Shown here: one piece after another, positions 9,948 through 33,572 of the stretch | How the letters are laid out: every line of letters begins with the position of its first letter | Numbering within the stretch: the stretch's first letter is position 1 | NCBI GenBank assembly: GCA_963836415.1 | Contig: CAWIJE010000004.1 | Span: 227,545 to 291,544 of the forward strand | Origin: an uncultured Solirubrobacterales bacterium | GTDB lineage: Bacteria; Actinomycetota; Thermoleophilia; Solirubrobacterales; 70-9 | Direction of reading: 5' to 3' | DNA length: 64,000 nucleotides | Made by a program: the position numbers and the translations under genes | Notes under the pieces: generated by a model | Told to the model about the DNA's origin: nothing | Databases searched by the model: none | What the model saw: only the letters and a program-made list of their open reading frames with translations

Positions 9948-11531
9948 TCACCAGGCGTCGACGAATCGCGGCCGCGGCTCGGGCACCGTGCCGGCCGCGG
10001 CGCGCAGGGTCGAGGCGATCAGCGGGCGGGTCTCGGCCGGGTCGATCACGTCGTCGAGCTCGAACAGCGCCGCCGCGTTCAGTGCCTTCGCGTTGTCTTC
10101 GGCCTGGGCGGTCAGCTCGCGCACCCGCTGCTCGCGCTCGTCCTCGTCGGCGATCGCCTCGAGCTCCTTGCGCAGGGCAAGGCGGACCGCCCCCTCGAGC
10201 CCCATCGGCCCGAGATGGGCGCTCGGCCAGGCGAGGCTGAGCAGCGGCTCGTGCAGGCCGCCGCCGACCATCGCCTGGGCGCCGAGCCCGTATCCGCGGC
10301 GGAGGACGACGGCGATCAGAGGCACCCGCAGGGCGGCGCCGGCGAGCAGCAGCCGCGAGCCGTGGCGGACGAGCCCGGTCGCCTCTGCCGCCGGGCCGAC
10401 CATCATCCCCGGCGTGTCGACCAGCGAGACGACGGGCAGGCCGAAGGCGTCGCAGAGCTGCAGGAAGCGGGCCGCCTTGTCGCCGGCGTCGCTGGTGATC
10501 GCGCCGGCCGTGTGGCGGGTGTCGTTGGCGATTAGGCCGACCGGCCGGCCCTCGATCCGGCAGAGCGCGGTGACCATCTCGGGGGCGAAGCGCTCGCGCA
10601 GGAAGGTGACCGACCCCTCGTCGGCGAGGGTCTCGACGATCGGCCGCACGTCGTAGGCGCGCCGCTGCCGCTCCGGCACCATCTCTCGCAGCGCCGCCTG
10701 GTCGGGGGCCGTGCCGGGCGCGGTGGCGCCCTGGAAGTAGCCGAGCAGCTTCCGCGTCGCCGCCGTCGCCTCGGCCTCGTCGGCGACGACCAGGTCGATG
10801 ACGCCGTTGGCGGACTGGACATCGACCGGGCCGACGTCGTCGGGGTCGACCTCGCCGAGGCCGCCGCCGGCGATCATCGCCGGCCCACCCATGCCGAGCG
10901 AGGCGTTCTCGGTGGCGACGATCAGGTCCGCGCAGCCGGCGATCACGGCGTTGCCGGCGAAACAACGGCCGGCGACGACGGCGATCCTCGGCACCAGTCC
11001 CGAGAGCTTCGCCCAGAGAGCGAAGGCGCGCACGTCGAGTGCCGAGACCACCGGGTAGTCGGTGTCGCCGGGCCGCCCTCCCCCGCCCTCGGCGTAGAAG
11101 ACGGTCGGCAGCCGCATCCGCTCGATCAGCTCGAAGAGCCGGTCCTTCTTCTTGTGGCCGAGAGCGCCCTGGGTGCCTGCCAGGACCGTGTAGTCGTAGG
11201 AGATCACCGCGCAGGCCGCCGCCTCGGCGCCGAAGAGATCGCCGTTGACGGTCGCCGTGCCGCCGATCATGCCGTCGGCCGGGGTCCGGGCGATCAGGTC
11301 CTCGAGCTCGCGCCGGCCGCGCTGGGCGGCGATCGCGAAGCGCCCGTACTCGACGAAGGTCCCGGCGTCGATCAGGTCCTCGATGTTCTCGCGGGCGGTC
11401 CGGCCGCCCGCGGCGTGGCGGCGCTCGGCCGCATCGGGCCGTGCCGCGTCCTCGGTCAGCGCCCGCCGCGCGAGCAGCTCGGCGAGGTCCTCGCGGCCCC
11501 CCTCCCCGCTTTTCGGCTCCCCGTCTGCCAC
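9948..11531 (-). CDS. acyl-CoA carboxylase carboxyltransferase (beta) subunit
   Basis: ENIEDLIDAGTFVEYG...TVFYAEGGGGRPGD...VSLVDTPGMMVGPAAE is the carboxyltransferase two-domain signature. The probable GTG start is at 11531; the listed ORF extends to 11636 through a low-complexity leader. Confidence 0.85.
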   Translation of the reverse strand: MADGEPKSGEGGREDLAELLARRALTEDAARPDAAERRHAAGGRTARENIEDLIDAGTFVEYGRFAIAAQRGRRELEDLIARTPADGMIGGTATVNGDLFGAEAAACAVISYDYTVLAGTQGALGHKKKDRLFELIERMRLPTVFYAEGGGGRPGDTDYPVVSALDVRAFALWAKLSGLVPRIAVVAGRCFAGNAVIAGCADLIVATENASLGMGGPAMIAGGGLGEVDPDDVGPVDVQSANGVIDLVVADEAEATAATRKLLGYFQGATAPGTAPDQAALREMVPERQRRAYDVRPIVETLADEGSVTFLRERFAPEMVTALCRIEGRPVGLIANDTRHTAGAITSDAGDKAARFLQLCDAFGLPVVSLVDTPGMMVGPAAEATGLVRHGSRLLLAGAALRVPLIAVVLRRGYGLGAQAMVGGGLHEPLLSLAWPSAHLGPMGLEGAVRLALRKELEAIADEDEREQRVRELTAQAEDNAKALNAAALFELDDVIDPAETRPLIASTLRAAAGTVPEPRPRFVDAW

Positions 11532-11601
11532 CGGGCGGGATGTTCCCAGATGGCCGCGGCCAGGAACGCCCCTCGTCGCGGGCAGGCTAGGCTGCGGGCC
11601 G

Positions 11602-12519
11602 GTGAACGTCCTGATCGCGGCGGACATGGAGGGCATCGCGGGGATCGACGATTACGGCGACTGCCTCCCCTCCCACCCGGGCGCCTACGCGCGGGGCCGG
11701 CGACTGATGACCGATGAGGTGCTGACCGCGATCGACGCCCTCGAGGCGGCGGGTGTCGAGCGGATCGTGGTCGGCGACTGGCACATGGTCGGCACCAACG
11801 TCGAACGCGACCGCATGCCGGCCGGGGTCGAGGTGCGGCCGATCGCCGACCTTGCCCTGGTCGAGTCCGAACCGTCCTTCACCAAGGCGGCCGGCGGGCC
11901 GCTCGACGCGGTCGTGATGATCGGCCACCACGCCCGCACCAAGAGCCCGCGCGGTTTCTCCTCGCACAGCTTCATCTGGGAGATGGAGGTGGCGCTCGAC
12001 GGCGAGCCGCTGAGCGAGGTCCAGGTCTACGCCCAGGGGCTCGCGGCGGAGGGGATCCCGGTCCTCGCCTGCGCCGGCGACAGCCACCTGCTCGACGAGC
12101 TCGGCGCCGATGAGCTGGGCGGCGCCCGGCTGGTGCCGACCAAGGAGGGGCTGGGCAGGGCCCGGGCCCGTTCCTACGGCCTCGCCGCGACCCGGGCCGC
12201 GATCGGCGAGGCGATCGGCGCGGCGCTCTCCGCCGAGCTGCGCCCGCCGCCGCCGCGCTCCTATCCCGCCGAGCTGCTGATCAGGCTCGAGGGCGAGGAG
12301 ATCGCCCGGGTCTCGATCGCCGAGCCCGGTGAGCTACTCAGCGCCGTCGCCGACGTCTTCCGCACCAGCGCCGCGGCGCGCGAGTACCGCCAGCTCGCCG
12401 CCCTCCTCCCCGCCGGACACGACTCGCTCCCGCGCGCCCTGCGGCGACGCTTCGGCAGCCTGCTGGCGACGCCGACGATGCGCTCCAAGGAGCGCGCCTG
12501 GATCGCCGCCGCGCCCTAG
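11602..12519 (+). CDS. M55 family D-aminopeptidase (DppA-like)
   Basis: VNVLIAADMEGIAGIDDYGD...VMIGHHARTKSPRGFSSHSF...LACAGDSHLLDE matches DppA. The GTG at 11602 is the likely start; the upstream 119 codons of the listed ORF are R/S-rich antisense of the carboxyltransferase gene. Confidence 0.75.
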   Translation: MNVLIAADMEGIAGIDDYGDCLPSHPGAYARGRRLMTDEVLTAIDALEAAGVERIVVGDWHMVGTNVERDRMPAGVEVRPIADLALVESEPSFTKAAGGPLDAVVMIGHHARTKSPRGFSSHSFIWEMEVALDGEPLSEVQVYAQGLAAEGIPVLACAGDSHLLDELGADELGGARLVPTKEGLGRARARSYGLAATRAAIGEAIGAALSAELRPPPPRSYPAELLIRLEGEEIARVSIAEPGELLSAVADVFRTSAAAREYRQLAALLPAGHDSLPRALRRRFGSLLATPTMRSKERAWIAAAP

Positions 12520-12526
12520 GCCCGAG

Positions 12527-12973
12527 TCAGTTCGCGCAGCGCGAGCAACGACCGCGGAGGACCACGTCGTGCTCGGAGATCTCGAAGGGGAGGTCGCCCT
12601 CGATCTTGTGGATCGCGCGCTCCAGGTCGCGATCCTCGAAGGCGACCATCCGCCCGCAGTCCCGGCAGATCGCGTGGTGGTGATGGTCCCCGCCGGGGTC
12701 GACGCGCTCGTAGCTCGCCGTCCCCCTGGAAGCCTCGAAGCGCTGCACCAGGCCGAGCTCCTCGAGCTGGTCGAGCGCCCGGTAGACGCTCGCCCTGCCG
12801 ACCGCGGCCCGCCGCCGGCGCAGCTCCTCGTCGATCTCGATCGCGGTCACCGCGCAGTCGTGGCGGGCGAGGGTCTCGACCACGGCGGTGCGGGCTCCGC
12901 CCCGTCGCAGGCCGGCGTCCTGGAGAGTTGCCAGGGCGTGCTCCGCCCAGCTCTTCTCAGCCGTTCTGGACAT
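12527..12973 (-). CDS. zur: Fur-family metalloregulator, probably Zur
   Basis: The Fur fold is indicated by RTAVVETLARHDC...HHHHAICRDCGRMVAFEDRDLE with a C-terminal CxxC. It sits immediately downstream of a Zn-type ABC importer in the same orientation. Confidence 0.75.
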   Translation of the reverse strand: MSRTAEKSWAEHALATLQDAGLRRGGARTAVVETLARHDCAVTAIEIDEELRRRRAAVGRASVYRALDQLEELGLVQRFEASRGTASYERVDPGGDHHHHAICRDCGRMVAFEDRDLERAIHKIEGDLPFEISEHDVVLRGRCSRCAN

Positions 12974-13763
12974 CGTTCGATCGTAGTTGGGCGAGCAGGT
13001 AGGCGGCGACGATCGCGATCGCGACCGAGGCGCCGCCGGCGGTTCCCGCGTAGTAGGAGAGGTAGAGGCCGGCGATGCCGGCGAGGATCGCGATCGCGAC
13101 CGAGAGCGCCAGCATCGGACCGATCCGGTCGGTGAGCTGGCGGGCGGCGGCGGCAGGGCCGACGAAGACGGCGACGACGAGCAGGTTGCCGAGGCCCTGG
13201 ACGGCGATCACGATCGCGATCGCGAGCAGGATGAAGAGCGCCGTTTCGGTGGCGGCGGGCGCGGCGCCGACACCGCGCGCGGCGGAGCGGTCGAAGCCGG
13301 TGGCGAGCAGGCGGCCGTGGAGGACGAACAAGGTCAGACCAGTCAGTGCGGCCAGCGCGGCGGCCGCCAGCAGGTCGCCGTCGGTGGCGCCGAGGACGTC
13401 GCCGAAGAGCAGCTCCTGCAGGCCGGGCGGCGAGTCGGCGGAGAGCGCCAGCAGCGCGCCGAGGCCGAAAAGAGTGGTGACGACGACGCCGACCGCGACC
13501 TCGCGGCTGATCCCCGGGACGCGGGCGACCAGCGCGATCGCCAGCGCCGCGACGAGCACCGCGGGGGCGCCGCCGAGGAGCAGCGGGACGCCTGCCAGCG
13601 CGGCCAGGACCAGCCCCGGGAAGATCGAGTGGGCGAGCGACTCGGCCGCGTAGGAGAGTCGGTAGAGGACGACCCAGCAGCCGATCGCGCCGCCGGCGAG
13701 GCCGACCAGGGCGACCTCGGCGATCGCCCGGCGCATGAACTCTTCGTGCAGTGGCTCGAGCAT
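12957..13763 (-). CDS. metal ABC transporter permease (ZnuB/TroD-like)
   Basis: MLEPLHEEFMRRAIAEVALVGLAGGAIGCWVVLYRLSY is a typical ABC-3 permease N-terminus. The start is the M at 13763, one nt after the ATPase stop. Confidence 0.85.
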   Translation of the reverse strand: MLEPLHEEFMRRAIAEVALVGLAGGAIGCWVVLYRLSYAAESLAHSIFPGLVLAALAGVPLLLGGAPAVLVAALAIALVARVPGISREVAVGVVVTTLFGLGALLALSADSPPGLQELLFGDVLGATDGDLLAAAALAALTGLTLFVLHGRLLATGFDRSAARGVGAAPAATETALFILLAIAIVIAVQGLGNLLVVAVFVGPAAAARQLTDRIGPMLALSVAIAILAGIAGLYLSYYAGTAGGASVAIAIVAAYLLAQLRSNDVQNG

Positions 13764-13764
13764 C

Positions 13765-14508
13765 TCAGTGGCTGTGGTGGGGTGGCAGGATCGCCTTGCC
13801 GGAGCCGGGGATCTCGACGATCTCGCCGCCGTAGGTGGCCTCGAGCACCGGCAGGTCGAGGACCTCATCCGGCGGCCCGACCGCGATCTGGCGTCGGTTG
13901 ACGCAGAGGACGCTGTCCCAGCGACGGGCCTGCTCGAGGTCGTGGGTGGCGATGATCAGCGCCCGGCCCTCCCCGGCCAGACGGCCGAGCAGCGACTCGA
14001 GCCGCTCAGAGCTCGGCCGGTCGAGCCCGGTGAAGGGCTCGTCGAGCAGCAGGACCCCCGCTTCCTGGACGAGGCAGCGGGCGATCAGCACGCGCTGGCG
14101 CTGGCCGCCAGAGAGACGGCCGAAGGTCTCCTCGGCGAGGTCGGCGAGGTCGACCTGGGCGAGCGCCTCGAGCGCCGCCCCCCGCTCGCGGCGGCCGGGC
14201 CGGCGCCACCACGGCAGCCGCGAGAGCGAACCCATCGCGGCGACGTCGAGGGCCGAGACCGGGTAGTCGAGCTGCGAGCGCTCGGTCTGCGGCACGGTCG
14301 CGCAGCGGGCGTCGACGACCAGCTCGCCGGCCAGCGCCGGCAGTTCGCCGAGCAGCGCCCGCAGCAGGGTCGTCTTGCCGCCGCCGTTGGGGCCGAGCAG
14401 GGCCATCGCCTCGCCCTCGTGGAGCTCGAACTCGAGCCCGGTGACCACGGTCTTGCCGCCGTAGCCGGCGCCCAGCCCGCGGGCCTCGATCAGAACCCGA
14501 GGCGGCAT
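13765..14508 (-). CDS. metal ABC transporter ATP-binding protein (ZnuC/TroB-like)
   Basis: Walker A GPNGGGKTT, ABC signature LSGGQRQR and Walker B LLLDEP. Confidence 0.85.
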   Translation of the reverse strand: MPPRVLIEARGLGAGYGGKTVVTGLEFELHEGEAMALLGPNGGGKTTLLRALLGELPALAGELVVDARCATVPQTERSQLDYPVSALDVAAMGSLSRLPWWRRPGRRERGAALEALAQVDLADLAEETFGRLSGGQRQRVLIARCLVQEAGVLLLDEPFTGLDRPSSERLESLLGRLAGEGRALIIATHDLEQARRWDSVLCVNRRQIAVGPPDEVLDLPVLEATYGGEIVEIPGSGKAILPPHHSH

Positions 14509-16232
14509 CGCCGGCGCCCTTCCGTGAAGCCGCGCACCATCGCATCGGCGTTGGCCTGCTCCATCTTCAGGTAGGTGGCGCCGGCCGAGCCGGCCGGGCC
14601 GAGGGTGTCGCCGTAGAGGGTGTAATCGGAGCTCGCCCCGGTCTGGGCGGCGATCGCGTCAGCCACCTTGGCGCTCAGCGAGCTCTCCGGGAAGACCGCC
14701 TTGACGCCGGCGGCTTCGATCGTCTTCGCCAGTTCGCTGAGGTCCTTGGCGGAGGGCTGCGCCTGGGTCGTCTGCGAGGGGATGACGGCGCCGATCACGT
14801 CGATCCCGTAGCGGGCGGCGAAGTAGCCGAAGGCGTCGTGGTCGGTGACCAGCTTGCGCCGGGCCCGGGGCACGGAGCCGACACAGCGGGCGATGCCGCG
14901 GTCGAGCGCCCGCAGTTCGGTCAGGTAGGCGGCCGCGTTGCGTTCGAAGAGGCGCCGTCGCGAGGGGTCGGCGGCGGCCAGTGCCCGCTCGATCGCCCGC
15001 ACCGCCGCCTCCGCGTTGCGCGGGTCATGCCACCAGTGAGGGTCGTACCTCGATGCCTCGGCGCCGCTGCTCTCGCCGGGCAGCCGGTCGGGGACGATCG
15101 CGCCGAGGTCGACGACGCGGGCATCGCTGCCGCTGTCGGAGACGACCTCGTCGACCCAGGCGTCGAGCTGGTCGCCGTTGGCGAAGACGAGCTTCGCGTC
15201 GGCGGCGCCGAGCACGTCCTGCGGCCGCGGTTCGTACTCGTGCGGGTCGGTGTTCGGCTGCAGGATCTGGTCGACCTCGACCGCGTTGCCGCCGACCTCG
15301 CGGACCAGGTCACCGAGCTGGGTGGTGGTCGCGACGACGTCGAGCCGGTCGCCGGAGTCGCCGCTGCCGCCGCAGCCGGTGGCAAGCAGGGCGATCGCGG
15401 CAAGCGCCGCGGCCGCCGAGACCAGGCGCGGCCGCCCGGCGAGCTCGCGGCCGGCGGCGACGAGAACGAAGACGGCGCCGGCGACGCAGGCGATCGTCGC
15501 CCCGGGAGGGGCGTTGGTCTCGACCGAGAGCCAGAGCCCGGCGACTCCCTCGAGCGCGACCAGGGCGATGCTGAGCAGCTGCCACGAGCGCAGCCGTTCG
15601 GTCAGCAGGCGGGCGGTCACCGCGGGCACGAGGAAGAGCGCGGTGACGAGCAGGGCGCCGACGACGCTGAGCGCGGCGACGCCGGCCAGGGCGACGAGGG
15701 CGAGAAGGATCGCGTCGAAGGTGCCGGCGCCCGGCCGCCTCGGGCCGGGCAGCGCCGGGTCGAAGCCGGTCCGCAGCCAGTGCTGGCCGATCAGGGCGCT
15801 GGCCAGCAGCGTGGCGGCGGCGGCCCCGGCGGCGAGCCAGAGGTCTCCGGAATCGATCAGGAGGAGGCTGCCGAAGAGCAGCGTCTCGATGTTCGAGCCG
15901 GAGCCGAAGACGTCGCTGGCGAGGATCACCCCGGCGGCGAGGCAGCCGACGAGAACCAGGGCCACCGCCGCGTCCTGCCCCGCCCGGCGCCCCCGCAGGG
16001 CCCAGGCGCCGCCGGCAAAGACGAGCGCCGCGCCGAAGGCGCCGAGCGGCGCGGCGAAGCCGAGGCCGTCGGCGAGCACCAGGCCGGGGAAGGAGGCGGT
16101 GCCGACCGCGTGCGAGAAGAAGGCGAGCCGGCGCAGGACGATCCAGGTCCCGAGCAGCCCGGCCGGGATCGAGAGGATCGCGATCTCGATCAGGCCGCGC
16201 TGGAAGAACGGGAGCTGGAAGGGCTCGAACAA
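14490..16232 (-). CDS. ABC-3 metal permease (TroC-like) fused in frame to a ZnuA/TroA-type metal-binding lipoprotein
   Basis: Residues 1-270 form a permease with about 8 TM helices. Residues 271-580 begin with a lipobox, LLATGCGGSG, followed by a TroA-like SBP (DPHEYEP...HWWHDP). There is no stop between the two halves. Confidence 0.7.
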   Translation of the reverse strand: MFEPFQLPFFQRGLIEIAILSIPAGLLGTWIVLRRLAFFSHAVGTASFPGLVLADGLGFAAPLGAFGAALVFAGGAWALRGRRAGQDAAVALVLVGCLAAGVILASDVFGSGSNIETLLFGSLLLIDSGDLWLAAGAAAATLLASALIGQHWLRTGFDPALPGPRRPGAGTFDAILLALVALAGVAALSVVGALLVTALFLVPAVTARLLTERLRSWQLLSIALVALEGVAGLWLSVETNAPPGATIACVAGAVFVLVAAGRELAGRPRLVSAAAALAAIALLATGCGGSGDSGDRLDVVATTTQLGDLVREVGGNAVEVDQILQPNTDPHEYEPRPQDVLGAADAKLVFANGDQLDAWVDEVVSDSGSDARVVDLGAIVPDRLPGESSGAEASRYDPHWWHDPRNAEAAVRAIERALAAADPSRRRLFERNAAAYLTELRALDRGIARCVGSVPRARRKLVTDHDAFGYFAARYGIDVIGAVIPSQTTQAQPSAKDLSELAKTIEAAGVKAVFPESSLSAKVADAIAAQTGASSDYTLYGDTLGPAGSAGATYLKMEQANADAMVRGFTEGRRRCRLGF

Positions 16233-16321
16233 AGTCCGCGGAGCTTAATGAGAATGACTCTTGTTTGCATCTTCACCCATGGCATGCGGCCCCGCCACGA
16301 GAACGCCGGTGGGCGTGGTGG

Positions 16322-19103
16322 CTAGCGTTTAGGGGGGGATGGCGGCACGAGCGTCGCGATGATCGTGCCGCTGCCGCCTTCCCCGCCTGGGACGCCGGCC
16401 TGAATAGAGACGTCGGCCTTGATCTTGTGCAGCGCCTTGAGTTTGGCCAGGCCCTTGGTCGAGAGCCTGCCGCTGACCGGGACTGCCTTGCCCGGCAGCA
16501 CCGTGACCGTCGTCGACCCGAGTCCGAGCTTCGCCTTCCTTTTCCTCTTCGGGACCAGGGCGCTCACGGCGACCGCGGCCGTGCATGGAGAGCGGCTCTC
16601 CGCCGGACATCCGATCGTCGAGGATTTGATCGTGAAGGTTCCGTTCCTCGCCACCTTCACCCTGCCGCCACGACCAAGCGCAAGGGATGCCCGCAGCCGG
16701 GCCGCCGGAAGCTGCAGATTCTGCACGGGTGTCGGCGCCGGGCAGTCGAGCCTGATGTCGAGGTTGGTCACCGGCGGCGGAATCGTCTGCACCTCGGTTT
16801 CAGTGAAGGCCTGCCCCGAGTTGCCCGGTGCGTGACAGCCATCCTTGGCGGCCTTCACCTTGTAGAAACCGGCGACCACGTCCCAGCCAAAGTGGCCGTC
16901 GGCTTCGCTGAGGTCGGGGTTCCTGCGGTTCATCGGCGACATCACGGCCGAGCCATCGGCGACCTGGGAAAACGGGCCGTTGAAGCTGTCTGACTGGAGC
17001 AGTGTCACCGTCGCTCCCGCAAGCGGAGCGCCGTCGACCGTGTGGACGAGCCCGCTCGGGTCGATGTAGATCGGGAAGGTGATTTCTTCGGGGCCGCCGC
17101 CCGGACCGCCGGGGCCTTCTTCTTCTTCTTCGTTTTCTTCTTCTTCTTCTTCGCGTTCTTCTTCTTCTTCTTCTTCTTCTTCGTCTTCTTCTTCGTTCTT
17201 CTTCTTCGTCTTCTTCTTCTTCTTCTTCTTCTTCTTCTTCGTCTTCTTCTTCTTCTTCTTCCGCTTCTTCTTCTTCCTGTTCTTTCTCTTCTTTTTCTTC
17301 TTCTTCTTTGCTCGCCGGGTGGCGGTCGATGATCGTCACCCGGGCGGCGCCGTGGTTCGGGAACAGCGGGTCGATGTGAAATTTGAAGATCCCGTTTTCA
17401 GGGTCATCGGGGCTCGGTTCGACCGGCTGGTCGGGCGCCACACGGAGGTCCAGGCCATCGGTGAATTCGACCTTCGCTTCGACTTCGTGATCGATCCCGG
17501 TTTCGTATTCGAGGACGAACGGTTCCTGCCAGTGCACCACCGGCACGCCTTCGGCCGACCTGCCACGCACCCCGGACCCGCTGAAGCCGACGCTCGGTGG
17601 TGGCAGCTCGGGAAGGGGGAGGACCACGTCCTGCCCGGTCTTCTCGACTTCGGGCCGGACCCGGGCGATCGTGGTCCGCGTGTGCGAGAGGGCTTTCGAT
17701 GAGGCGGGCGGGAAAGCGGTCACGCGGTATTTGCCAGAGATCGGGACCTGGAGTTTGTAGAAGCCGTTGGAGTCCGTGGTCGTCGATCGACACGGGGTGC
17801 CGCTGCGCTTGCAGACCTGGACCGACGCACCCGCGAGGGCATGGGCGGGCGCCGCCTCGTCCTCGTAGACGTGGCCGCTGATCGCGCCGGCGACGCTGCT
17901 CTCGGCCGAGTCCGTTTCACCTCCGGGGGCGGTGGCGGTGACGGTCACCTTCAGCGACTTGCCGGCATCGGCGGCGCTCGCCGTGTAGCTGGTCCCGGTG
18001 GCGCCGGCGATCGACTGACAGGCACCCTCGGGGCCACAGCGCGACCACTGGTAGGTGAACCCGCCGCTGCTCACTTCCCAGGCGCCGGGACTGGCCGTGA
18101 ACACCTCGCCGGCGCGCGGGCTTCCGGCGCCGGCCGAGAGGGTCGGTGGGGTGACGTTGATCGGTACCAGGGCCGGCGTACAACCGTCGGGGAGCCGAGT
18201 CGGGCTGCGCTCGCCGACGGGCCAGGTGGTCGCGTCGTAGAAGCAGAGGTACTCGACCTCGGAGAGGGGTGTCGTCCAACCGTTCGGCAGCGGCCGGTCG
18301 AGGCTGATTCCCGAGTTGTTCGAGCCCGACGAGCCGTCATAGTCGACGGTGATGCTGGCCGGGCCGACGTTGGCCGGGTCACGCCAGATCAGCAGGCCGG
18401 CGTTCGTGCTCGAGGCGTTGATCGCGAGCCACGATTCGTCCCAGTCTTTGCTGATGCAGACGTTGCAGATCCCTTCCGCCGGCGCCAGTTTCGTGCCGGT
18501 GGCGTCGGGGTGGATCTCCTGGTTGTAGGTGCCGTAGGAGAGGCGCGGCACGTAGGAGCGCATGCCCTGCACGATGTATGGCTCCTGGGTCGGCGCGAAC
18601 GACCAGCGGCGGACGATCCGAGCCGTGTTGGCGGAGGCGCCTTCGTCGAAGAAGGTGTAGCGGGTGCTGACCGGGATCGGGGGGTCGTCGCCCGAGCACG
18701 AAGGGGCCACCGACGTGATCTCCAGGGTGCGGGTGCTGCGCGCCTCCCATGACCCCCTGCTGCAGGCCACCACCGGGCCGGGCCCCTGCCCGTCGGCATT
18801 GCCGTAGGACTGCCCCCAGAACTCGGTCGCATTGACGCAGGTGCCGTTGTTCGCCGCCAGGTTGGGCCTGCTCGAGAACTCTTCGCTCGCCAGGACCCTC
18901 CATTTGACCGATTCGACGCACTCGACATCAGCGCTCGAATCACCGAAGTTCCATTCCAGCTTCGGGGTCGCCACCGTGTCACCGCCCTCGGTGATCGTGA
19001 TCGCCGCCGACGCCGAAGCGGCGCCGAGAGCGAGGACGGCGGCCACCGTAAGAGGCAGCAACAACCATGGACGATTTCTCGAACGTACTCCCCAATAAGC
19101 CAT
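16322..19103 (-). pseudogene. large secreted surface protein with YQW/PKD-like and carboxypeptidase-regulatory-like domains plus a poly-Glu linker; reading frame broken inside the GAA tract
   Basis: ATG at 19103 with signal peptide MAYWGVRSRNRPWLLLPLTVAAVLALGAASASA. The domains include ...FTYQWSRCGPEGAC... and DSNGFYKLQVPISGKYRV. A run of about 45 Glu follows, then the listed 844-aa ORF turns into poly-Arg junk. A plausible C-terminal domain continues in another frame as ORF 16322..17008. A single C interrupting the GAA repeat near 17194 accounts for the shift. Confidence 0.6.
17115..17312. repeat. (TTC)n/(GAA)n trinucleotide tract of about 65 units with sparse G/C interruptions
   Basis: The repeat is directly visible as ttcttcttc...gtc...cgc. 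It encodes poly-Glu on the minus strand. The poly-Phe and poly-Ser plus-strand ORFs 17042..17332 and 17079..17702 are artefacts of it. Confidence 0.9.
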
Positions 19104-19220
19104 TGTTTTCGACGCTATCACGACCCCCAAGGTCAAGATTCCCCTTCCTGTGGTGCCGGGGTCGACCGTTCGTCGGGATCGGCTAAAGCGGCTCGTCCCG
19201 GCGTCGATAATGGTCAGGTC

Positions 19221-20815
19221 GTGCGCGCCCGCCTCGCCCTCCTCGCAGTCACCCTCTCGGTCCTCGCCGCGGCGACCCCGGCCGCGGCCTCGGTCGAAGT
19301 GCCCTTCACGCCGCGCTTCTCGGCCAACGCGCACGGCGACGTCGCGATCGCCGCCAACACGCTGATGACCTGCCCCGACGGCGGCGGGGTCGAAACGGCC
19401 TGCCTGGAAGCGCGCGGGGGCGTCTCGGCGCCGTCACTCAATAACAACGGCTACAAAATGGGGACCGTCGACGTCGACTCCGACGCGACCACCTTCGACT
19501 CCTCGCAGGCGACCCTGAGCCTGCCGCCGGGGGCGAGCGTGCTCTTCGCCGGCCTCTACTACGGCGCCCGCACCAGCGCCGGCGAAGAAGGTGCGGCGGC
19601 GGCGGACCCCGCCGCCCGCGGCACCGTCCTGCTCCAGGCCCCCGGCGCCGCCAGCTACAGCTCGCTGGCGGCCGAAGTCGACGACAGCACCGCGATCAAA
19701 GGCTCCTACGTCGGCTTCGTCGACGTCACCCCGATCGTCGCCGCGGCCGGCGCCGGCGACTACCGCGTCGCCGACGTCCAGGCCGGCACCGGCAAAGACC
19801 GCTACGCGGGCTGGTCGCTGCTCGTCGCCTACGGCGATCCGGCGGCGCCACCCGCAGCCTGCGCGTCTACGACGGCCTGGCGGCGATCTCGCAGGGCGAG
19901 GAACCGCTGCAGATCGGGATCGCCGGGCTCGAGACGCCGAGCGAGGGCGAGGTCTCGGCCCGGGTCGGGCTGGTCGACTACGAGGGCGATCGGGGCTCAA
20001 CCGGGGACCGGCTGTCGCTCGCCGGCAAACCACTGTTCGACGCGGCCAACCCCGAAAAAAACATCTTCAACAGCTCGATCTCCGTCGGCGGCGTCGCCGC
20101 GAGCTCGAAGCTCCCCGACTACGTCAACCAGCTCGGCTTCAACGCCGACCTGATCAGCGCCGACGGCTTCCTCGCCAACGGGGCGACCTCGGCGACGCTG
20201 GAAGAGTCGACCTCGAACGAGCAGTACCTGACCGAGGCGGTCAGCGTCGCGATAGAGCTCGACCCCGAGGTGCTCGAACCGCCTGTCGTGCCACCGCCAC
20301 CGCCACCGCCACCACCCGCGTCGCCGGCGCCGACCGAGCCGGCGCCGCAGGAAAAGCCCAAGAAGGGCGACGGGGACAAGGCCGGCGACAAGGGCGGCGG
20401 CGACGAGGCGAAGATGGCGGTCGAGGTCGAAGCCGGCCCGACGGTCGCGCGCCCGACCGATGTCGTCGTCGTCCGCGTCACGGTCGAATCGAGTGGCAAT
20501 GCCACGCTCAAGGGCGTCAAGGCCTGCAACAGCCTCGAGCCCGGGCTCGAGCGGCTGACGGCGCCGGGCGCGACGGGCAAGGAGGCCACCACCTGCTGGC
20601 AGCTGGCGAAGCTGGCACCGGGCGGGACGCACACCTTCGTCACCACGGCCCGGGTCAAGGGCTCGGCCCACGGCTCGCTGCAGAGCAGGACGATCGTCCG
20701 TGCCGCCAACGCCAAGGCGCGTCGGGCCGTGACCCGGATCCGGGTCTCGCCGCTGCCGGACCTGCCCTGCGCCCGCGCGGCCTCGGCGGCGGCGGTCGCC
20801 CACGCCTCCTGCTGA
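19221..20815 (+). pseudogene. secreted protein with poly-Pro linker and C-terminal domain; frameshifted near 19860
   Basis: Signal peptide MRARLALLAVTLSVLAAATPAAAS, then a plausible domain through GWSLLVAYGDPAAPP at about 19860. The ORF then degenerates, while the +1 frame reads SLRVYDGLAAISQGEEPLQIG...PPVVPPPPPPPPPASPAP...VVVVRVTVESSGNATLKG... to the stop at 20815 (ORF 20270..20815). Confidence 0.6.
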
Positions 20816-20837
20816 GCGCCGGGCATATGCTGGCCGG

Positions 20838-21863
20838 GTGGCCGAGGCAGAGCAGAAGACCGTTCTCGTCAGCGGCGGCACCGGGTTTCTCGGCAGCTGG
20901 TGCGTGGTTGAGCTGCTGCGCGCGGGCTACGCGGTCCGCACCACCGTCCGCGACCTCGCCCGCGAGCCCGAGGTGCGGGCGGCGATCGGCGCCGAGGTCG
21001 AGGTCGGCGATCGGCTCGAGGTGCTCCCCGCCGACCTGCTCAGCGACGAGGGTTGGGACGCGGCGGCCAGGGGCTGCTCCCACATCCTGCACGTCGCCTC
21101 CCCCTTTCCCCGCGCCCAGCCGAAGGACCCCGACGAGCTGATCGTGCCGGCCCGCGAAGGCACCCTGCGGGTGCTGCGCGCGGGCCTCGACGCCGGCGTC
21201 GAGCGGGTCGTCGTCACCTCCTCGGTGGCGGCGATCGGCGGCGGCGCCGACCCCGCCGCCGGCCCGCTCGACGAGGGCGCCTGGACCGACCTCGACCACG
21301 CCGGCCTGACCCCCTACGCGCGCTCGAAGACGATCGCCGAGCAGGCCGCCTGGCAGCTGGTCGAGGAGCGGGGCGAGCGCGAGCGGCTCGCCGTGATCAA
21401 CCCGGGCGCGATCCTCGGCCCCGTCCTGACGGCGGGGCGCTCCTCCTCGCTGCAGCTGGTCGAACGCCTGCTCGGCGGGATGCCCGCGATTCCCCGGATC
21501 GGCTTCAGCCTGGTCGACGTGCGCGACGTCGCCACCCTTCAGCTGAGCGCGATGACGGCCTCGGAGGCGGGCGGCGAGCGCTTCATCGCGGTCTCCGAGT
21601 TCCTCTGGATGTCGGAAGTCGCCGCAGCCCTGCGCGAGCGGCTCGGCGAGGCAGGCAAGAAGATCCCGACCCGCACGATGCCCGACCTCCTGGTCCGCCT
21701 CGCCGGCGTCTTCGACCCGGGCATCCGCTCGGTCGTCGGCCAGCTCGGCCGCCATCAGGAGTACTCCAACGCGAAGGCGCGCGAGCGCCTCGGCTGGGCA
21801 CCGCGTCCGCCGCTCGACTCGGCCACCGACGCGGCCAAGAGCCTCATCTCCGATCCGGCCTGA
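20838..21863 (+). CDS. NAD-dependent epimerase/dehydratase family (SDR; aldehyde/flavonol reductase-like)
   Basis: VLVSGGTGFLGSW Rossmann motif, YARSK catalytic dyad region. Confidence 0.8.
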   Translation: MAEAEQKTVLVSGGTGFLGSWCVVELLRAGYAVRTTVRDLAREPEVRAAIGAEVEVGDRLEVLPADLLSDEGWDAAARGCSHILHVASPFPRAQPKDPDELIVPAREGTLRVLRAGLDAGVERVVVTSSVAAIGGGADPAAGPLDEGAWTDLDHAGLTPYARSKTIAEQAAWQLVEERGERERLAVINPGAILGPVLTAGRSSSLQLVERLLGGMPAIPRIGFSLVDVRDVATLQLSAMTASEAGGERFIAVSEFLWMSEVAAALRERLGEAGKKIPTRTMPDLLVRLAGVFDPGIRSVVGQLGRHQEYSNAKARERLGWAPRPPLDSATDAAKSLISDPA

Positions 21864-21881
21864 GCGCTCCGAGGAGCCCGC

Positions 21882-22439
21882 TCAGAGGCCGGCAGGATGG
21901 CGCGCCGCGAAGTTGCGCGGGTCGGCCATCTCCGGGTGCCAGCGGGGGCCGGAGACGCCGGAAGGGGCGTCGCGGGTGTCGTAGCGAAGGCCGGCGACGA
22001 CCATGTACACGTGGTGCCAGTTGGCGTAGACCGTGATCCAGCGCCCGGTTCCGGCATCGCCCCACTGTTCGAGCTGACCCGAGACCATCGTCGTGCTCAA
22101 CAGGTCTCCGCCATGCAGGGCGTAGCCGACCGCCCCCGAGCAGTCATAGCCGAAGCTGGTCCAGCCCAGGTGGCCGCCGCCCCAGACATAGGGGCGGCCG
22201 TCGATCCGGTTCGCCGCCGCGATCACGTCCTTGACCGACTGCGGCGCGTAGGGCGGCGCCAGCGCCCGGCCGTCGACGATCTGTGCCCCGCAGGTCGAGC
22301 TCGACCGTTCCACCCCTGCTTCGGCCATCTGGCATTCGTAGCGCCACGGGATCGGCCGGGCGGAAGCTGCGGTCGTGGAGGCCGCGAGAACTGCCGCCGC
22401 CATCGCCAAAACCGCCCCGAGTCTCCCTCTGCCGCGCAT
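21882..22439 (-). CDS. NlpC/P60 family secreted peptidase
   Basis: Signal peptide MRGRGRLGAVLAMAAAVLAAS. YVWGGG...GYDCSG (Cys) and WHHVYMVV (His) are the papain-like C40 motifs. Confidence 0.75.
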   Translation of the reverse strand: MRGRGRLGAVLAMAAAVLAASTTAASARPIPWRYECQMAEAGVERSSSTCGAQIVDGRALAPPYAPQSVKDVIAAANRIDGRPYVWGGGHLGWTSFGYDCSGAVGYALHGGDLLSTTMVSGQLEQWGDAGTGRWITVYANWHHVYMVVAGLRYDTRDAPSGVSGPRWHPEMADPRNFAARHPAGL

Positions 22440-22513
22440 CTCGGCCCAAAGCGTAGACGCAGCGCGGCTAGGCGCCCCCGGCATAGGATCGGGCACCGCC
22501 GAAAGGAGCCTGG

Positions 22514-23623
22514 ATGAAGATGCGTGCCGCGGTGCTGGAGGAGTTCGGAAAGCCGCTCGAGCTGCGGGAGGTCGACCTGGCCGAGCCGCGCTCGGGTGAG
22601 GTCCTGGTCCGGCTCCACGCCTGCGGCGTCTGCCACACGGACCTCTACACCGCCTCCGGCGCCGACCCCTCCGGCTACGCGCCGACCGTGCTCGGCCACG
22701 AGGGCGCCGGCGTGGTCGAGTCCGTCGGCCCCGACGTCGCCGACTTGGCGCCCGGCGATCACGTCGTCACCCTCTTCTCGCCGCAGTGCCGCGAGTGCGT
22801 CCACTGCCTCGACCCGCGGACCAATCTCTGCCTGGCGATCCGCGAGCAGCAGAACAAGGGCCTCCTTCCCGACGGCACGACCAGGATCTCGAGCGACGGT
22901 GAGGGCATCCGCAGCTTCATGGGCTGCTCGACCTTCGCCGAGTACACGGTGATGCCGGAGATCGCCCTCGCCCGGGTCAACCCCGAGGCGCCGTTCGAGG
23001 CTGCCTGCCTGTTCGCCTGCGGGCTCTCGACCGGCCTCGGCGCCGCGATCAACACCGCGACGGTGGCGCCGGGCAGCACCTGCGTCGTCTTCGGTGCCGG
23101 CATGGTCGGCCTCGGCGCGGTCGCCGGCTGCCGGCTGCAGGGCGCCGAGCGGATCGTCTGCGTCGACCTCTCGGCCGAGCGGCTCGAGCTCGCTCGCGGC
23201 CAGGGGGCGACCGAGGTGATGCAGGGCGGGCCGGACGCGGTCGAGCAGCTGCTCGAGATGACCGGCGGCTTCGGCGCCGACTACACCTTCGAGGCGACGG
23301 GCAACGTCGCCGTCATGCGCCAGGCGGTGGAATCGGCGCGCATGGGCTGGGGACTCTGCACAGTCGCCGGCGTCGCCGGCCGCGGCGAGACGCTCGACGT
23401 CATCCCGCGATTCCTGATCACCGGCCGGCGCATCGCCGGCTCATCCTTCGGCGGCGTCAAGGGCCGCGACCAGGTGCCGCAACTGGTCGAGCGCTATCTC
23501 GCCGGCGAGATCGACGTCGAGCCGTTCCTCTCGCACCGGATCGGCCTCGAGCAGGTCAACCACGGCTTCGAGCTGATGGAGGCCCAGGACGGGATCCGCA
23601 GCGTGATCACCCTGGCCGCCTGA
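22514..23623 (+). CDS. class III Zn-dependent alcohol dehydrogenase; likely S-(hydroxymethyl)mycothiol/formaldehyde dehydrogenase
   Basis: AAVLEEFGKPLELREVDLAEP...LHACGVCHTDL...GHEGAGVVESVG...VFGAGMVGL is the standard class III ADH profile. Confidence 0.8.
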   Translation: MKMRAAVLEEFGKPLELREVDLAEPRSGEVLVRLHACGVCHTDLYTASGADPSGYAPTVLGHEGAGVVESVGPDVADLAPGDHVVTLFSPQCRECVHCLDPRTNLCLAIREQQNKGLLPDGTTRISSDGEGIRSFMGCSTFAEYTVMPEIALARVNPEAPFEAACLFACGLSTGLGAAINTATVAPGSTCVVFGAGMVGLGAVAGCRLQGAERIVCVDLSAERLELARGQGATEVMQGGPDAVEQLLEMTGGFGADYTFEATGNVAVMRQAVESARMGWGLCTVAGVAGRGETLDVIPRFLITGRRIAGSSFGGVKGRDQVPQLVERYLAGEIDVEPFLSHRIGLEQVNHGFELMEAQDGIRSVITLAA

Positions 23624-23632
23624 CCCGGCGGC

Positions 23633-23927
23633 TCAGGCGCCCTTCTCGAGCAGGCCCGCGACCGCGCCCGCGATCCTCACCCCGCGGGGGGTCAGCGCGT
23701 ACTCGGTGTGCGGGGGCCGCCCGGCGACCAGCCGCCGCTCGACGATCCCGGCCTGCTCGAGCTGCTCGAGCCGGTCCGAGAGCGTCGTCGGCGAGACGCC
23801 CGGCAGCGACTGGCGGAACTCGTTGAAGCGGGCGGCGCCGCTGGCGCAGGCGTAGATCGTCGCCAGCGTCCAGCGGCGCTCGAGCAGGCTCGCCGCCGCC
23901 CTCAGGTCGGGCGGGACGGGAGCGCAG

Positions 23928-23947
<20 letters not shown>
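23633..23947 (-). CDS. HxlR-family winged-helix transcriptional regulator
   Basis: LLERRWTLATIYACASGAARFNEFRQSLPGVSPTTLSDRLEQLEQAGIVERR. Confidence 0.75.
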
Positions 23948-26243
<2,296 letters not shown>

Positions 26244-26310
26244 TTTCTGTAGTTAGTCGTTGAAGGGTAGCGCACGCCCCGCCTGCTGCCAAGACCGCTA
26301 CGGTGTGCGC

Positions 26311-26652
26311 ATGGATGCCGCCCGTGCCAAGGAGCTGCTCGATCGCGAGCGCGAGCAGATCGAGGCCGAGCTGGCCAGCGTCGAGCGCGACACGCCCGAG
26401 GAGGGCGACGAGCGCCGCGAGCCCGGGGACTTCAACTCCGAGGGCCTCTACCAGGACGAGTTCGACGCCGGCCGCGCCCAGGACCTGAAAGCACGGCTCG
26501 GCGCCGTCGAGCGGGCCGAGGCACGCCTCGCCGACGGCAGCTATGGCGTCTCGGTGCAGAGCGGCGAGACGATCCCCGACGAGCGCCTCGAGGCCCACCC
26601 GACCGCCGAGCTGACGGTCGCGGAGGAGGAGCGCGGAGGCCGACCGGCCTAA
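26311..26652 (+). CDS. DksA/TraR-family protein lacking the Cys4 zinc finger
   Basis: Coiled-coil N-terminus (LDREREQIEAELASVERD), then ...ARLADGSYGVSVQSGETIPDERLEAHP. Canonical DksA has C-x2-C...C-x2-C here, but the positions hold S, V and S. Confidence 0.55.
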   Translation: MDAARAKELLDREREQIEAELASVERDTPEEGDERREPGDFNSEGLYQDEFDAGRAQDLKARLGAVERAEARLADGSYGVSVQSGETIPDERLEAHPTAELTVAEEERGGRPA

Positions 26653-28550
26653 GCCGCTCCGGGCGCCGGCGCGATCGTCGAGCGCGCGCCCGCCTCCCGC
26701 ACCGCCGCCGAGAGGGTCTCGATGTCGTAGGCGCCCTCGTGGCGCCGCTCGTTGATGAAGAAGGTCGGTGTCCCGGTGACGCCGCTCGAGTCGGCGGAGT
26801 CGACGTCTTCCTCGATCCGCGGCGCGTGCTCGTGCCTGCGCATCTCGTCGTCGAAGCGCTCGAGGTCGAGCTCGAGCTGTTTGGCGTACCTGCGCAGGTC
26901 GCGGAAGCGGAGGTCGCCCTGATGGTCGAGGAGGAGGTCGTGCATCTCCCAGAAGGCACCCTGCGCGGCCGCCGCCTCGGCCGCCTCGGAAGCGGTGTCG
27001 GCGTTGGGGTGCACGTCGGAGAGCGGCAGGTGGCGCCAGACGTAGCGCACGTCGCCGAAGTCGCCGAGCAGCTCACGGATCACCGGCTCCGCCCGGCCGC
27101 AGTAGGGGCACTCGAAGTCGCCGTACTCGACCACCGTCACCGGCGCCTCGGCCGGCCCGCGCAGGTGGTCGCGCTGCGGGTCGACCGGCACCGCCAGGTC
27201 GGTCAGCCCCTCGGCTCCGGCCAGCATCGCCCTGATCCGGGCCCGGTTCGGCAGCAGCGAGGTCGCGCGCAGGACCAGCCAGGTCAGGGCCGAGGCGCAG
27301 ATGGCGGCGCTGAGCACGCCGAGCTTCGCCTCCTCGAGCTGCTCGCCGTGGAAGGCCAGGGCGGCGATCAGCAGCGAGACGGTGAAGCCGATGCCGGCGA
27401 TCGCCCCTCCCCCGGCCGTCGCCGCCCAGCCGACCGGCGGCCGCAGCCGGCCACCGCTGAGCTTGGTCGCCAGCCAGGCGGCGCCGGTTACGCCGACCGG
27501 CTTGCCGAGGACGTAGCCGAAGAGGATGCCGAGCGTGATCGGCGAGGTGTAGGCGCGGGCGAGGAAGTCGCCGTCGATCGCGATGCCGATGTTGGCGAGG
27601 GCGAAGAGCGGGACGATCACGTAGCTGGTCCACGGGTGGTAGAGCTGCAGCAGCCGGGCGTTCGGAGAGACCGCGGCGCGCAGCCCGACCCGGGCAGAGC
27701 GCTCGAGCTGCGGCGTCGGCTGCTCGCGGAAGTCGCGAAAGAGGTTGGTGGCGCGCTCGAGCTCGCTGCGCCCCGCCGGGTTGGCGCCGACGACGAGGCC
27801 GGTGGCGAGGCCGAGGATCACCGGGTCGAGCCCGGATTCGAAGAGCGCGACCCAGGCGACGATCGCCAGCAACAGGTAGACGACCCCCTCACGCACCGCG
27901 GCGATGCGGAGCCCCAACATGACGAGGAAGACACCGACCGCGATCAGCAGCGGCTCGAGCTCGACATGGCCGCTGTAGGCGACCGCGATAACGAGCAGGG
28001 CGACGACGTCGTCGACGACGATCGTGGTCAGCATGAAGCCGCGCAGCCGGTCGGGGAAGGCCGGGCCGACAAGCGCCAGCATGCCGAGCGCGAAGGCGGT
28101 GTCGGTCGACATCGCGACTCCCCAGCCGTGCGCCGAGGGGTCGCCGGCGTTGATCGCGAGGAAGATCGCGACCGGGACGAGCATGCCGCCGAGACCGGCC
28201 AGCACCGGCAGCGCCAGCCGGCGCCGCTCGCGCAGCTCGCCGACGTCGAACTCGCGCCGCACCTCGAGGCCGACGACGAAGAAGAAGAATGTCATCAGGC
28301 CGCTGTTGACCCAGTCCCGCAGGCTCTGTGAGAGGCCCGAGCCGCCGACGTCGATCGAGAGCCGGGTGTGCCAGACGCTCTCGTAGGAGGAGAGGTCGAC
28401 GTTGGCCCAGACCAGAGCCGCGGCGGCTGCGGCGAGCAGGATGCTGGCGCTGCCGGTCTCGGTGGTGAGGAAGTCGCGCAGCGGCGCCTGCAGGCTGCGC
28501 GCCCAGGCGGTACGGCCGCTGAAGGCAGATCTGAATCGGAAGAGGCTCAC
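26649..28550 (-). CDS. nhaA: Na+/H+ antiporter NhaA fused to C-terminal DsbA-like thioredoxin domain
   Basis: The NhaA TM core spans residues 1-430. The C-terminal ~200 aa carry VEYGDFECPYCGRAEPV (CPYC active site) and the DsbA fold. Confidence 0.85.
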   Translation of the reverse strand: MSLFRFRSAFSGRTAWARSLQAPLRDFLTTETGSASILLAAAAAALVWANVDLSSYESVWHTRLSIDVGGSGLSQSLRDWVNSGLMTFFFFVVGLEVRREFDVGELRERRRLALPVLAGLGGMLVPVAIFLAINAGDPSAHGWGVAMSTDTAFALGMLALVGPAFPDRLRGFMLTTIVVDDVVALLVIAVAYSGHVELEPLLIAVGVFLVMLGLRIAAVREGVVYLLLAIVAWVALFESGLDPVILGLATGLVVGANPAGRSELERATNLFRDFREQPTPQLERSARVGLRAAVSPNARLLQLYHPWTSYVIVPLFALANIGIAIDGDFLARAYTSPITLGILFGYVLGKPVGVTGAAWLATKLSGGRLRPPVGWAATAGGGAIAGIGFTVSLLIAALAFHGEQLEEAKLGVLSAAICASALTWLVLRATSLLPNRARIRAMLAGAEGLTDLAVPVDPQRDHLRGPAEAPVTVVEYGDFECPYCGRAEPVIRELLGDFGDVRYVWRHLPLSDVHPNADTASEAAEAAAAQGAFWEMHDLLLDHQGDLRFRDLRRYAKQLELDLERFDDEMRRHEHAPRIEEDVDSADSSGVTGTPTFFINERRHEGAYDIETLSAAVREAGARSTIAPAPGAA

Positions 28551-31367: not shown

Positions 31368-32183
31368 TCAGCTCAGCGCGACCGCGGCCTCGGGCGTGAC
31401 GACGCGGAAGGTGAAGCTCTCCTCGAGATAGAGCTCGACCGCCTCGGCGGTCGTGAGCGGTCGTAGCCGATCGAGAGGTCCTCGCCCGACTCGAAGAGGA
31501 AGTCGCCGCCGCGCAGGCTCAGCACCACGGCGCCCTTCACGCCGGGCGCCCAGACCAGCGGGCCGCCGAGGATCTCGCGCAGGTGCTCGAGCAGCGGGTA
31601 GCCGCCGTGCTCGCTGGTCTCGAGCACGCGGGTGTACGGCGTCGGGGCCGAGCGCCAGGCCGTAAGGGCCCCTCGATGCCCGGCCGCGAGCAGCGCCTCG
31701 ACCGCGCTGGCGACGTGACTGCGGGTAGCGCTCGCAGTCCTCGCCGAGCGCGATCGGGTCGTGCGGAGCTCGACTCGACGCGATGCCGGCGATCCCGGCC
31801 GCGCTTCCAGCCGTGGAAGACGGCCGATGTTCTCGGCGATCGGCGAGCTGCTGCGCGGCCTCGTCGAGCGGGTCGAAGTCGACGTCCTCGGCGCCGCGGT
31901 CGACGTCGGCCAGCTCGCCGCGGGCGACCGTGAACGGGGCGCGCAGCTCGACCAGCGGCAGCACCTGGCGCTGCACCGCCTCGACGCCCTCGGCCGGGCG
32001 CGCTCGGCGACCTCGCCGCTTCGGCCGAGGTTGGTCGCCGGAGTGCTGCCAGCCGTGCGGGCCGGAGAAGTCGACGAGCCGGCGGGCGGCCAGCGCCGGC
32101 GTCAGCCGCTCGCGCGCCTCGTCGTCGAGCAGGTCCCAGCCGCGCTCGGTGATCGGGGCGTGCTCGCGCAGCAGGTGGCTCAT
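31368..32183 (-). pseudogene. family 1 encapsulin (Linocin M18-like) shell protein, interrupted by at least four frame changes
   Basis: MSHLLREHAPITERGWDLLDDEARERLTPALAARRLVDFSGPHGW is a canonical encapsulin N-terminus, and ...TAEAVELYLEESFTFRVVTPEAAVALS* a canonical C-terminus. The middle pieces (VASAVEALLAAG, GPYGLALGPDAV, EHGGYPLLEHLREILGGPLVWAPGVKGAVVLSLRGGDFLFESGEDLSIGYD) alternate between two frames around 31700, 31665, 31640 and 31460. Confidence 0.75.
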
Positions 32184-33492: not shown

Positions 33493-33572
33493 GGCGTCGG
33501 TTTCGGCGCCCTGCTCCGGCCGTGATATCTGCGACAGTCGTTTCGTCGCACCCCATCCCCGAGGAGGAAGTC

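Follow-up and report, generated by a model that had tools for sequence, protein, structure and literature searches.

Long simple repeats in the coding sequences (CDS) of surface or secreted proteins, with lengths that vary by lineage, are familiar from the contingency loci of Neisseria, Haemophilus and Campylobacter. Here we analyze such a repeat in a 64,000-nt stretch of DNA (the window) from an uncultured Solirubrobacterales bacterium (contig CAWIJE010000004.1, positions 227,545 to 291,544), where a tract of GAA triplets encodes the acidic linker of a predicted secreted protein. The gene occupies positions 16322..19103 on the minus strand, and a lone C within the tract splits it into two open reading frames (ORFs). 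It differs from the contingency loci in that its 3-nt unit alters the length of the linker and not the frame (slippage in multiple-of-three tracts has been reported as length variation; PMC5953494), and in that the break is a point indel. We conclude that the two ORFs are halves of one gene and that the break is probably an error in the sequence.

Staphylococcal surface proteins of the Sdr/Clf type carry an acidic, low-complexity Ser-Asp stalk between their ligand-binding domains and the wall anchor. In outline, the protein studied here seems analogous, with N-terminal binding modules, immunoglobulin-like (Ig-like) or Cna-B/transthyretin-like domains, and a long acidic repeat spacer. It differs in lacking an LPXTG motif, in having poly-Glu in place of Ser-Asp, and in carrying a basic Ig-like domain where Sdr proteins have a wall-spanning anchor. 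Its match to SdrD_B (PF17210) scores 23.0 bits, below the Pfam cut-off of 29.7, and it is not a member of the Sdr family.

A galactose-mutarotase-like fold is used by many carbohydrate-active enzymes (CAZymes). Those that share the fold of the N-terminal domain of our protein include GH174 endo-1,3-fucanases (8jd7, 9k1g), aldose-1-epimerases and PL4 rhamnogalacturonan lyase (1nkg). Our protein is like these CAZymes in being secreted and modular, with beta-sandwich accessory domains and conserved aromatic, acidic and Arg residues; it differs in that identity is just 6-12% and membership is undetectable at the sequence level. In the GH174 enzyme Fun174A, the catalytic acids are D119, E120 and E218 (PMC11943901). 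Acidic residues invariant in the family described below include E282, E284 and D290.

False pseudogenes in long-read assemblies have been traced to indel errors in the consensus, which break genes up artificially (PMC12007338). The frame lesions of the window resemble indel errors of long-read or low-coverage assemblies in being single-base changes in conserved ORFs, with many genes hit and no nonsense codons or decay. They differ from such errors in being mostly +1, outside homopolymers and strongly clustered.

Results

A single base separates the two halves of the gene

The ORF that starts at ATG 19103 on the minus strand begins with a Sec-type signal peptide and continues as protein-like sequence as far as ...KEEEEKEEKEQEEEEAEEEEEEDEEEEEEEEEEDEEEE. 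Past ...DEEEE it decays into poly-Arg nonsense, as the first-pass annotation had described, and stops at 16800-16802. From the break point, the other frame resumes as EEEDEEEEEEEEEREEEEEENEEEEEGPGGPGGGPEEITFPIYIDPSG... and runs to a stop at 16322-16324. The lone C at 17195 (gaagaa-C-gaagaa) is the sole base separating the two frames, in agreement with the earlier claim that it splits the gene. Deleting it yields one CDS of 926 aa plus stop. The features of the gene are listed here from its 5' end.

16322..19103, minus strand: whole gene (repaired translation; more than 50 full-length homologs; ortholog from a collinear contig aligned in two frames)
19005..19103, minus strand: Sec-type signal peptide, MAYWGVRSRNRPWLLLPLTVAAVLALGAASASA followed by AI (read from sequence; model helix at residues 15-27; isoelectric point (pI) 11.7)
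18159..19004, minus strand: N-terminal all-beta domain of ~280 aa, putatively a galactose-mutarotase-like supersandwich (fold-level likeness)
17889..18158, minus strand: Ig-like domain with 'YQW' motif, residues ~316-405 (weak Pfam SCAB-Ig match, E = 0.15; model beta strands)
17604..17888, minus strand: carboxypeptidase-regulatory-like (transthyretin-like) domain (Pfam PF13620, residues 408-468)
17325..17603, minus strand: fourth beta domain, residues ~501-593 (model strands 505-577 with a predicted local distance difference test score (pLDDT) of 82-96; family alignment)
17117..17324, minus strand: GAA-encoded acidic linker (tandem-repeat array, codon list, charge, homologous linkers)
17195, minus strand: stray base, a +1 frame lesion (C on the minus strand, G on the plus strand)
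17090-17116, minus strand: Gly/Pro hinge GPGGPGGGP, directly following the linker
16739..17098, minus strand: C-terminal domain 1, a transthyretin/Cna-B-like beta-sandwich starting at the invariant FPIYIDPSG (invariant columns; AlphaFold2 (AF2) model)
16325..16738, minus strand: C-terminal domain 2, a very basic Ig-like beta-sandwich (Foldseek matches to pilin, cadherin and arrestin-type sandwiches)
16800..17194, minus strand: out-of-frame tail of the N-terminal ORF, 132 codons of poly-Arg with 22 AGA and 11 CGA codons
17042..17702, plus strand: spurious poly-Phe, poly-Ser and poly-Leu ORFs from the TTC array, not genes

The plus-strand ORFs (17042-17332 and 17079-17702) are shadows of the tract and were rightly suspected of being spurious. 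For the C-terminal half, the earliest start codon is GTG 17008, which lies inside C-terminal domain 1 and offers no signal peptide.

Tandem Repeats Finder reported a period-3 array at 17116-17308 (64 copies, 83% matches, plus-strand consensus CTT), which agrees with the long, near-perfect GAA/TTC tract first noticed. The GC content of the array is 0.42, versus 0.709 for the window. The repaired linker comprises ~69 residues with a net charge of ~-52; it has 55 Glu with a longest unbroken run of 10, rather than the ~45 consecutive Glu initially proposed. Its non-Glu interruptions are, in order, GAC, GAC, [C], GAC, CGC and AAC. All of the others end in C, so the lone C may just as well be what is left of a GAC after a 2-nt deletion (of 'GA') as the product of a 1-nt insertion.

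Homologs carry both halves in one frame

We searched for homologs using the two halves joined, with the linker removed. This query matched 126 proteins, more than 50 of them full-length relatives of ~800-950 aa. Many distant matches cover just 8-13% of the query, at the YQW Ig-like region, and carry PF23197/PF16709. The homologs have both halves in one polypeptide, with an acidic linker of variable length (60-90 residues in the family) between PNHGAARVTI and FPIYIDPSG. Such contiguous homologs are numerous, and the proposal that a single secreted protein has been split into the two ORFs thus holds. The window copy and its relatives agree in domain order and in having a Gly/Pro hinge after the GAA-encoded linker, and the motifs common to them include EFWGQSYG, DYDGSSGSNNSG, PNHGAARV, FPIYIDPSG and GHFGWDV. 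Among distant members, the acidic linker is absent in P0012, and a Pro/Asp linker is found instead in P0040 and L013. On this sequence evidence, the window gene is a further member of an unnamed, conserved family of predicted secreted proteins of uncultured Solirubrobacterales/Thermoleophilia, other examples of which are P0001 (below) and JGI metagenome entries labeled 'hypothetical protein'.

The closest relative (P0001) has 937 aa and matches with 1263 bits and 69% identity. It lies on L001 (OY969912.1; MFD09368.bin.1.80), a 3.09-Mb contig of an uncultured Solirubrobacterales metagenome-assembled genome (MAG) that, except for an L001-only segment (below), is collinear with the window from 9951 to 28550. 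The two share the divergent DUF11 protein, an epimerase and znu genes. In tblastn, residues 34-596 of the L001 ortholog align to 19001-17310 in frame -3 (69% identity), and residues 672-930 to 17098-16346 in frame -1 (63% identity). Neighboring genes show 82-97% protein identity between the window and L001, versus only 63-69% for the target.

Acidic linkers could be measured at nine loci: seven GTDB-representative loci (L001, L002, L004-L007 and L015) and the JGI contigs L077 and L078, which share one and the same linker sequence. These loci span short-read k141 assemblies (L005, L007), JGI assemblies (L077/L078) and Nanopore MFD MAGs. In nine of nine, the two halves lie in one frame across a linker of 243-276 nt, which answers the proposed check for homologs joined in this way. 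The window linker measures 259 nt as encoded and 258 nt without the C, inside the family range. Length differences between species are all multiples of 3. The window copy differs from its family by one extra base in the linker, and by Glu runs that are purer than in most relatives, the purest being those of the window and L004. In this family, an acidic linker encoded by GAA is a conserved feature, in frame at every locus measured.

Downstream of the break, the protein appears intact. Of the columns invariant in 12 homologs, the C-terminal half retains 55 of 55, on a par with any intact member, and the N-terminal half 111 of 113. The AF2 models of the two halves have pLDDT values of 91.1 and 85.7, respectively.

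Exact-protein look-ups matched no same-species sequence, and the scan of GTDB representatives returned other species only, at no more than 69% identity. A scan of JGI metagenomes with exact 32-nt linker flanks found three contigs, also from other species (~76% nucleotide identity), with GAA-built linkers; in L077/L078, the full linker is in frame.

Similar frame lesions occur in unrelated genes of the window

We surveyed the window by a codon-usage (codon-model) scan followed by homology checks. At least 17 frame lesions were found, including that of the target gene; 12 are stray +1 bases and five are -1. Stop-codon bracketing, another way to place lesions, was useless at 71% GC, where the permissible intervals were 240-1000 nt. 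The further lesions, at least 16, are distributed over an encapsulin gene (10), its cargo gene (1), an aldehyde dehydrogenase gene (2), a PucR-type regulator gene (1), the DUF11 neighbor of the target (1) and one probable case. The genes concerned are the following.

19221-20815, plus strand: DUF11/CLIPPER-type secreted protein with a proline-rich segment, the divergent neighbor of the target (1-nt loss at 19839-40, GATCC·GGCGGC)
29853-31345, plus strand: aldehyde dehydrogenase spread over three frames (stray +1 bases at 30375 and 30892)
31371-32573, minus strand: encapsulin operon, cargo plus type-1 shell (shell from 32183 to 31371)
~33549-34285, plus strand: repeat-rich gene (KNAVK repeats) with a probable frame change near 33850, as suggested by codon statistics
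35148-36301, minus strand: PucR-type regulator, GGDEF_2 plus HTH_30 (1-nt loss in a G-run near 35455)

The gene with the densest lesions is that of the encapsulin shell. Its protein was reassembled from 11 pieces that alternate in frame, which implies 10 single-base lesions in ~800 nt, and residues 1-272 of the product align end to end with PDB 9ry4 (E = 2.5e-71). Ten indels over an otherwise pristine protein are unlike gene decay and like consensus error of the indel type. Next to it, the ferritin-like (EncFtn-like) cargo has its canonical targeting peptide AAESLGIGSLRGQGR* in a shifted frame (SLGIGSLRG...), with the lesion between 32235 and 32227; the cargo stop overlaps the ATG of the shell gene. 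In the aldehyde dehydrogenase, the base at 30375 (gtc-G-atc) falls within the canonical GNxxxxKP motif, and a single Pfam match (profile positions 158-461) crosses the junction at 30892 (ggc-T-ggc). The L001 ortholog of the DUF11 protein is intact (529 aa), with residues 1-206 aligning in frame 3 of the window and residues 208-348 in frame 2.

With respect to sequence context, a run of G surrounds one lesion and short G/C runs adjoin two; no clear motif emerged around the stray +1 bases. The lesions fall into two clusters, one spanning 17.2-19.8 kb and the other 30.4-35.5 kb; the stretches 9.9-17 kb and 20-28.5 kb, over which L001 orthologs align as single segments, yielded none. Such clustering suggests that the consensus is poor in places, through low depth, strain mixture or gap filling, rather than that errors are spread evenly.

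Two further differences or oddities of gene order were seen on the 3' side of the target. Where the window has only 16233-16321, L001 has 12815-16744, with five extra genes (~3.7 kb), namely a response regulator and four small ORFs; this L001-only segment adjoins the fast-evolving target gene, between it and the znu fusion. The latter is one ORF (14490-16232, minus strand) in which a metal-transport permease of the ABC-3 type is joined to a ZnuA-like solute-binding protein. L001 has the same 548-aa fusion, so the fusion is natural and not another artifact.

Cause of the frame break

We attribute the C at 17195, with fair confidence, to a consensus or assembly indel error and not to biology. 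At least 16 similar single-base lesions in unrelated genes mean that the lone C is not special; the C-terminal half shows no decay, and no homolog carries the shift. Collectively, the lesions bear the signature of consensus error in an error-prone assembly, probably a long-read or low-coverage one. For the nearest relatives, the MAG set was Nanopore-only with one Medaka polish (PMC12313526).

Several considerations weigh against this picture. The error is inferred indirectly. The stray C is outside any homopolymer, the classic context of long-read errors, as are several other +1 lesions. The two lesions of the first cluster fall on neighboring genes for surface proteins, both of them fast-evolving, and this could reflect real relaxed selection or strain heterogeneity. 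As for the role of the protein (below), it is derived from fold-level similarity alone, at 6-12% identity.

The main rival explanation is that the C is a genuine and very recent frameshift, making the gene a null allele (a young pseudogene), perhaps together with its DUF11 neighbor. These adjacent, divergent genes are the only broken ones in the 18.6 kb collinear with L001. Moreover, the target evolves fast compared with its neighbors, and loss or inactivation is common among genes of this kind; repeats of low complexity do act as mutational hot spots; and the absence of decay fits a very recent event. Local low coverage or strain heterogeneity in the metagenome could explain the clustering, yet so could a real inactivation of the gene pair, and for this reason we keep the null mutation in consideration, as an unlikely explanation. 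What counts against it is that at least 15 more indel lesions lie in housekeeping-type genes with pristine protein, 10 of them within ~800 nt of the encapsulin gene, which shows the window sequence itself to be unreliable for indels. Besides, the shift in the target is unaccompanied by any nonsense codon, deletion or loss of conserved residues, and the product as encoded would need 22 AGA codons to be translated in a genome where AGA is all but absent (1 of the 642 Arg codons counted across 16 intact window genes).

It has also been suggested that the C, or variation in repeat length, could switch the C-terminal domains on and off. A functional frameshift of any kind, whether a repeat-driven phase-variable switch or a programmed +1 recoding site, seems to us very improbable. 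Long pure repeats do vary in length, as does this linker across species, with purer runs in the window and L004. Yet phase-variable loci have a repeat unit that is not a multiple of three or a repeat in the promoter, whereas this array has period 3 and lies inside the CDS. Slippage by 3 nt preserves the existing frame and can neither change nor restore it, so even a genuine C would be a plain null and not a switch. As a point indel, it has no high-frequency route back. The homologs in other species are all in the 'on' frame (nine of nine measured loci unshifted), and stray bases of the very same appearance are seen in many window genes unrelated to the target.

For recoding, the scenario would be that the C is genuine and that ribosomes leaving the GAA run stall at the extremely rare CGA and AGA codons and move by +1 into the frame of the GAA codons, so that full-length protein is made. 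Rare codons are a context able to promote +1 shifting, and the codons after the C are very rare indeed (CGA accounts for 14 of the same 642 Arg codons). If true, the (GAA)n linker would have a second function as a recoding site, setting the amount of C-terminally complete, possibly envelope-retained protein. We give this scenario very little credence. A programmed +1 site would be expected to show a conserved shift and a P-site codon that allows re-pairing; no homolog conserves a shift at the position of 17195 or elsewhere, and reasoning from the sequence, tRNA-Glu on GAA-GAA-C-GAA cannot re-pair to the +1 codon AAC. The AGA/CGA-rich tail, together with a C-terminal half whose first start (GTG 17008) lies inside a domain and lacks a signal peptide, indicates that the allele, if real, is null and not an alternative state.

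Predicted architecture and function of the repaired protein

Taking the C as an error, we considered the domains of the 926-aa protein. The signal peptide and the carboxypeptidase-regulatory-like domain noted in the first-pass annotation are both well founded: the former is of Sec type, as read from the sequence, and the latter matches PF13620 CarboxypepD_reg in two stretches (40.2 bits versus a gathering cut-off of 32.3; E = 4.5e-10). The second stretch, at residues 683-741, coincides with a weak Dioxygenase_C match in Pfam. A C-terminal Ig-like region, which had been judged plausible, is likewise predicted, as the C-terminal half folds confidently into Ig-like beta-sandwiches. The fourth beta domain ends in the conserved ...PNHGAARVTI motif, just before the linker, and the last 136 residues of the protein are strongly basic (pI ~11.9, charge ~+19.5). 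We found no lipobox Cys, LPXTG motif or transmembrane anchor in the protein, whose C-terminus is ...IIATLVPPSPPKR.

The N-terminal domain matched no Pfam or NCBIfam family at the sequence level, and an NCBIfam search of the entire protein gave nothing significant. A profile of 55 family members compared with PDB sequences hit no chain at E <= 1. For this domain, comparison of folds was the one informative approach. Family-invariant residues of this domain are of the aromatic, acidic and Arg type, and its conserved residues include R148, Y149, R162, R165, W221, W225, E282, E284, D290 and W294.

Based on these features, we propose that this is a secreted glycan-binding or glycan-processing protein, with the N-terminal modules performing that role. 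The linker would most likely be an extended, self-repelling spacer between the N-terminal glycan modules and the basic C-terminal domain, judging from the charges. By the same token, the basic domain may tether the protein to the anionic cell envelope or to a substrate. The flexible-spacer role envisaged at the outset is plausible.

The linker is built from GAA throughout the family

Codon usage in the linker is distinctive. Glu is encoded by GAA 53 times and by GAG once, versus 61:598 across 16 intact window genes (Fisher p ~1e-46). Outside the tract, the target gene is also enriched in GAA (23:20, p = 5e-12), and its GC content is below that of neighboring genes. Across nine loci from different species, the linker totals are 478 GAA and 4 GAG (47-63 GAA and 0-2 GAG per homologous linker). 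The host genomes have 68-71% GC and elsewhere favor GAG by ~6-10 to 1 (~85-90% of Glu codons). The remaining linker codons keep the genomic bias in GC content at third positions: CAG predominates 19:1, GAC 43:0 and AAC 11:1. Several interruptions are positionally conserved between species, from which it follows that the tract is not simply a fresh microsatellite.

Glu runs do not, as a general habit, use GAA only, since EEE runs elsewhere are GAG-rich (126 GAG, 15 GAA). Glu runs of four or more outside the family were absent from the fetched loci. Avoidance of the Shine-Dalgarno-like GAGGAG was considered as a cause of the all-GAA linker, but it does not hold as a general rule. Among the Glu-Glu pairs of other genes, the share of GAG-GAG matches expectation (0.729 versus 0.724 expected), and CAG-GAA, which also gives AGGA, is freely used in the linkers. 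With GAG-GAG unavoided and EEE mostly GAG, this idea was removed. Three candidate causes may account for the bias: ongoing slippage with homogenization, selection for a rare-codon translational pause between exported domains, or a DNA- or RNA-level property of GAA·TTC tracts.

Discussion

Split genes, pseudogenes or switches called from this window are to be distrusted pending a check of the reads. The gene itself is one more member of an uncharacterized secreted family that is widespread in soil Solirubrobacterales. What stays mildly interesting, and is the only such residue of the analysis, is the all-GAA linker, a trait that does not depend on the frameshift. If the GAA bias reflects selection at synonymous sites, through translation pausing or the behavior of repeat DNA, this family would provide a neat natural case.

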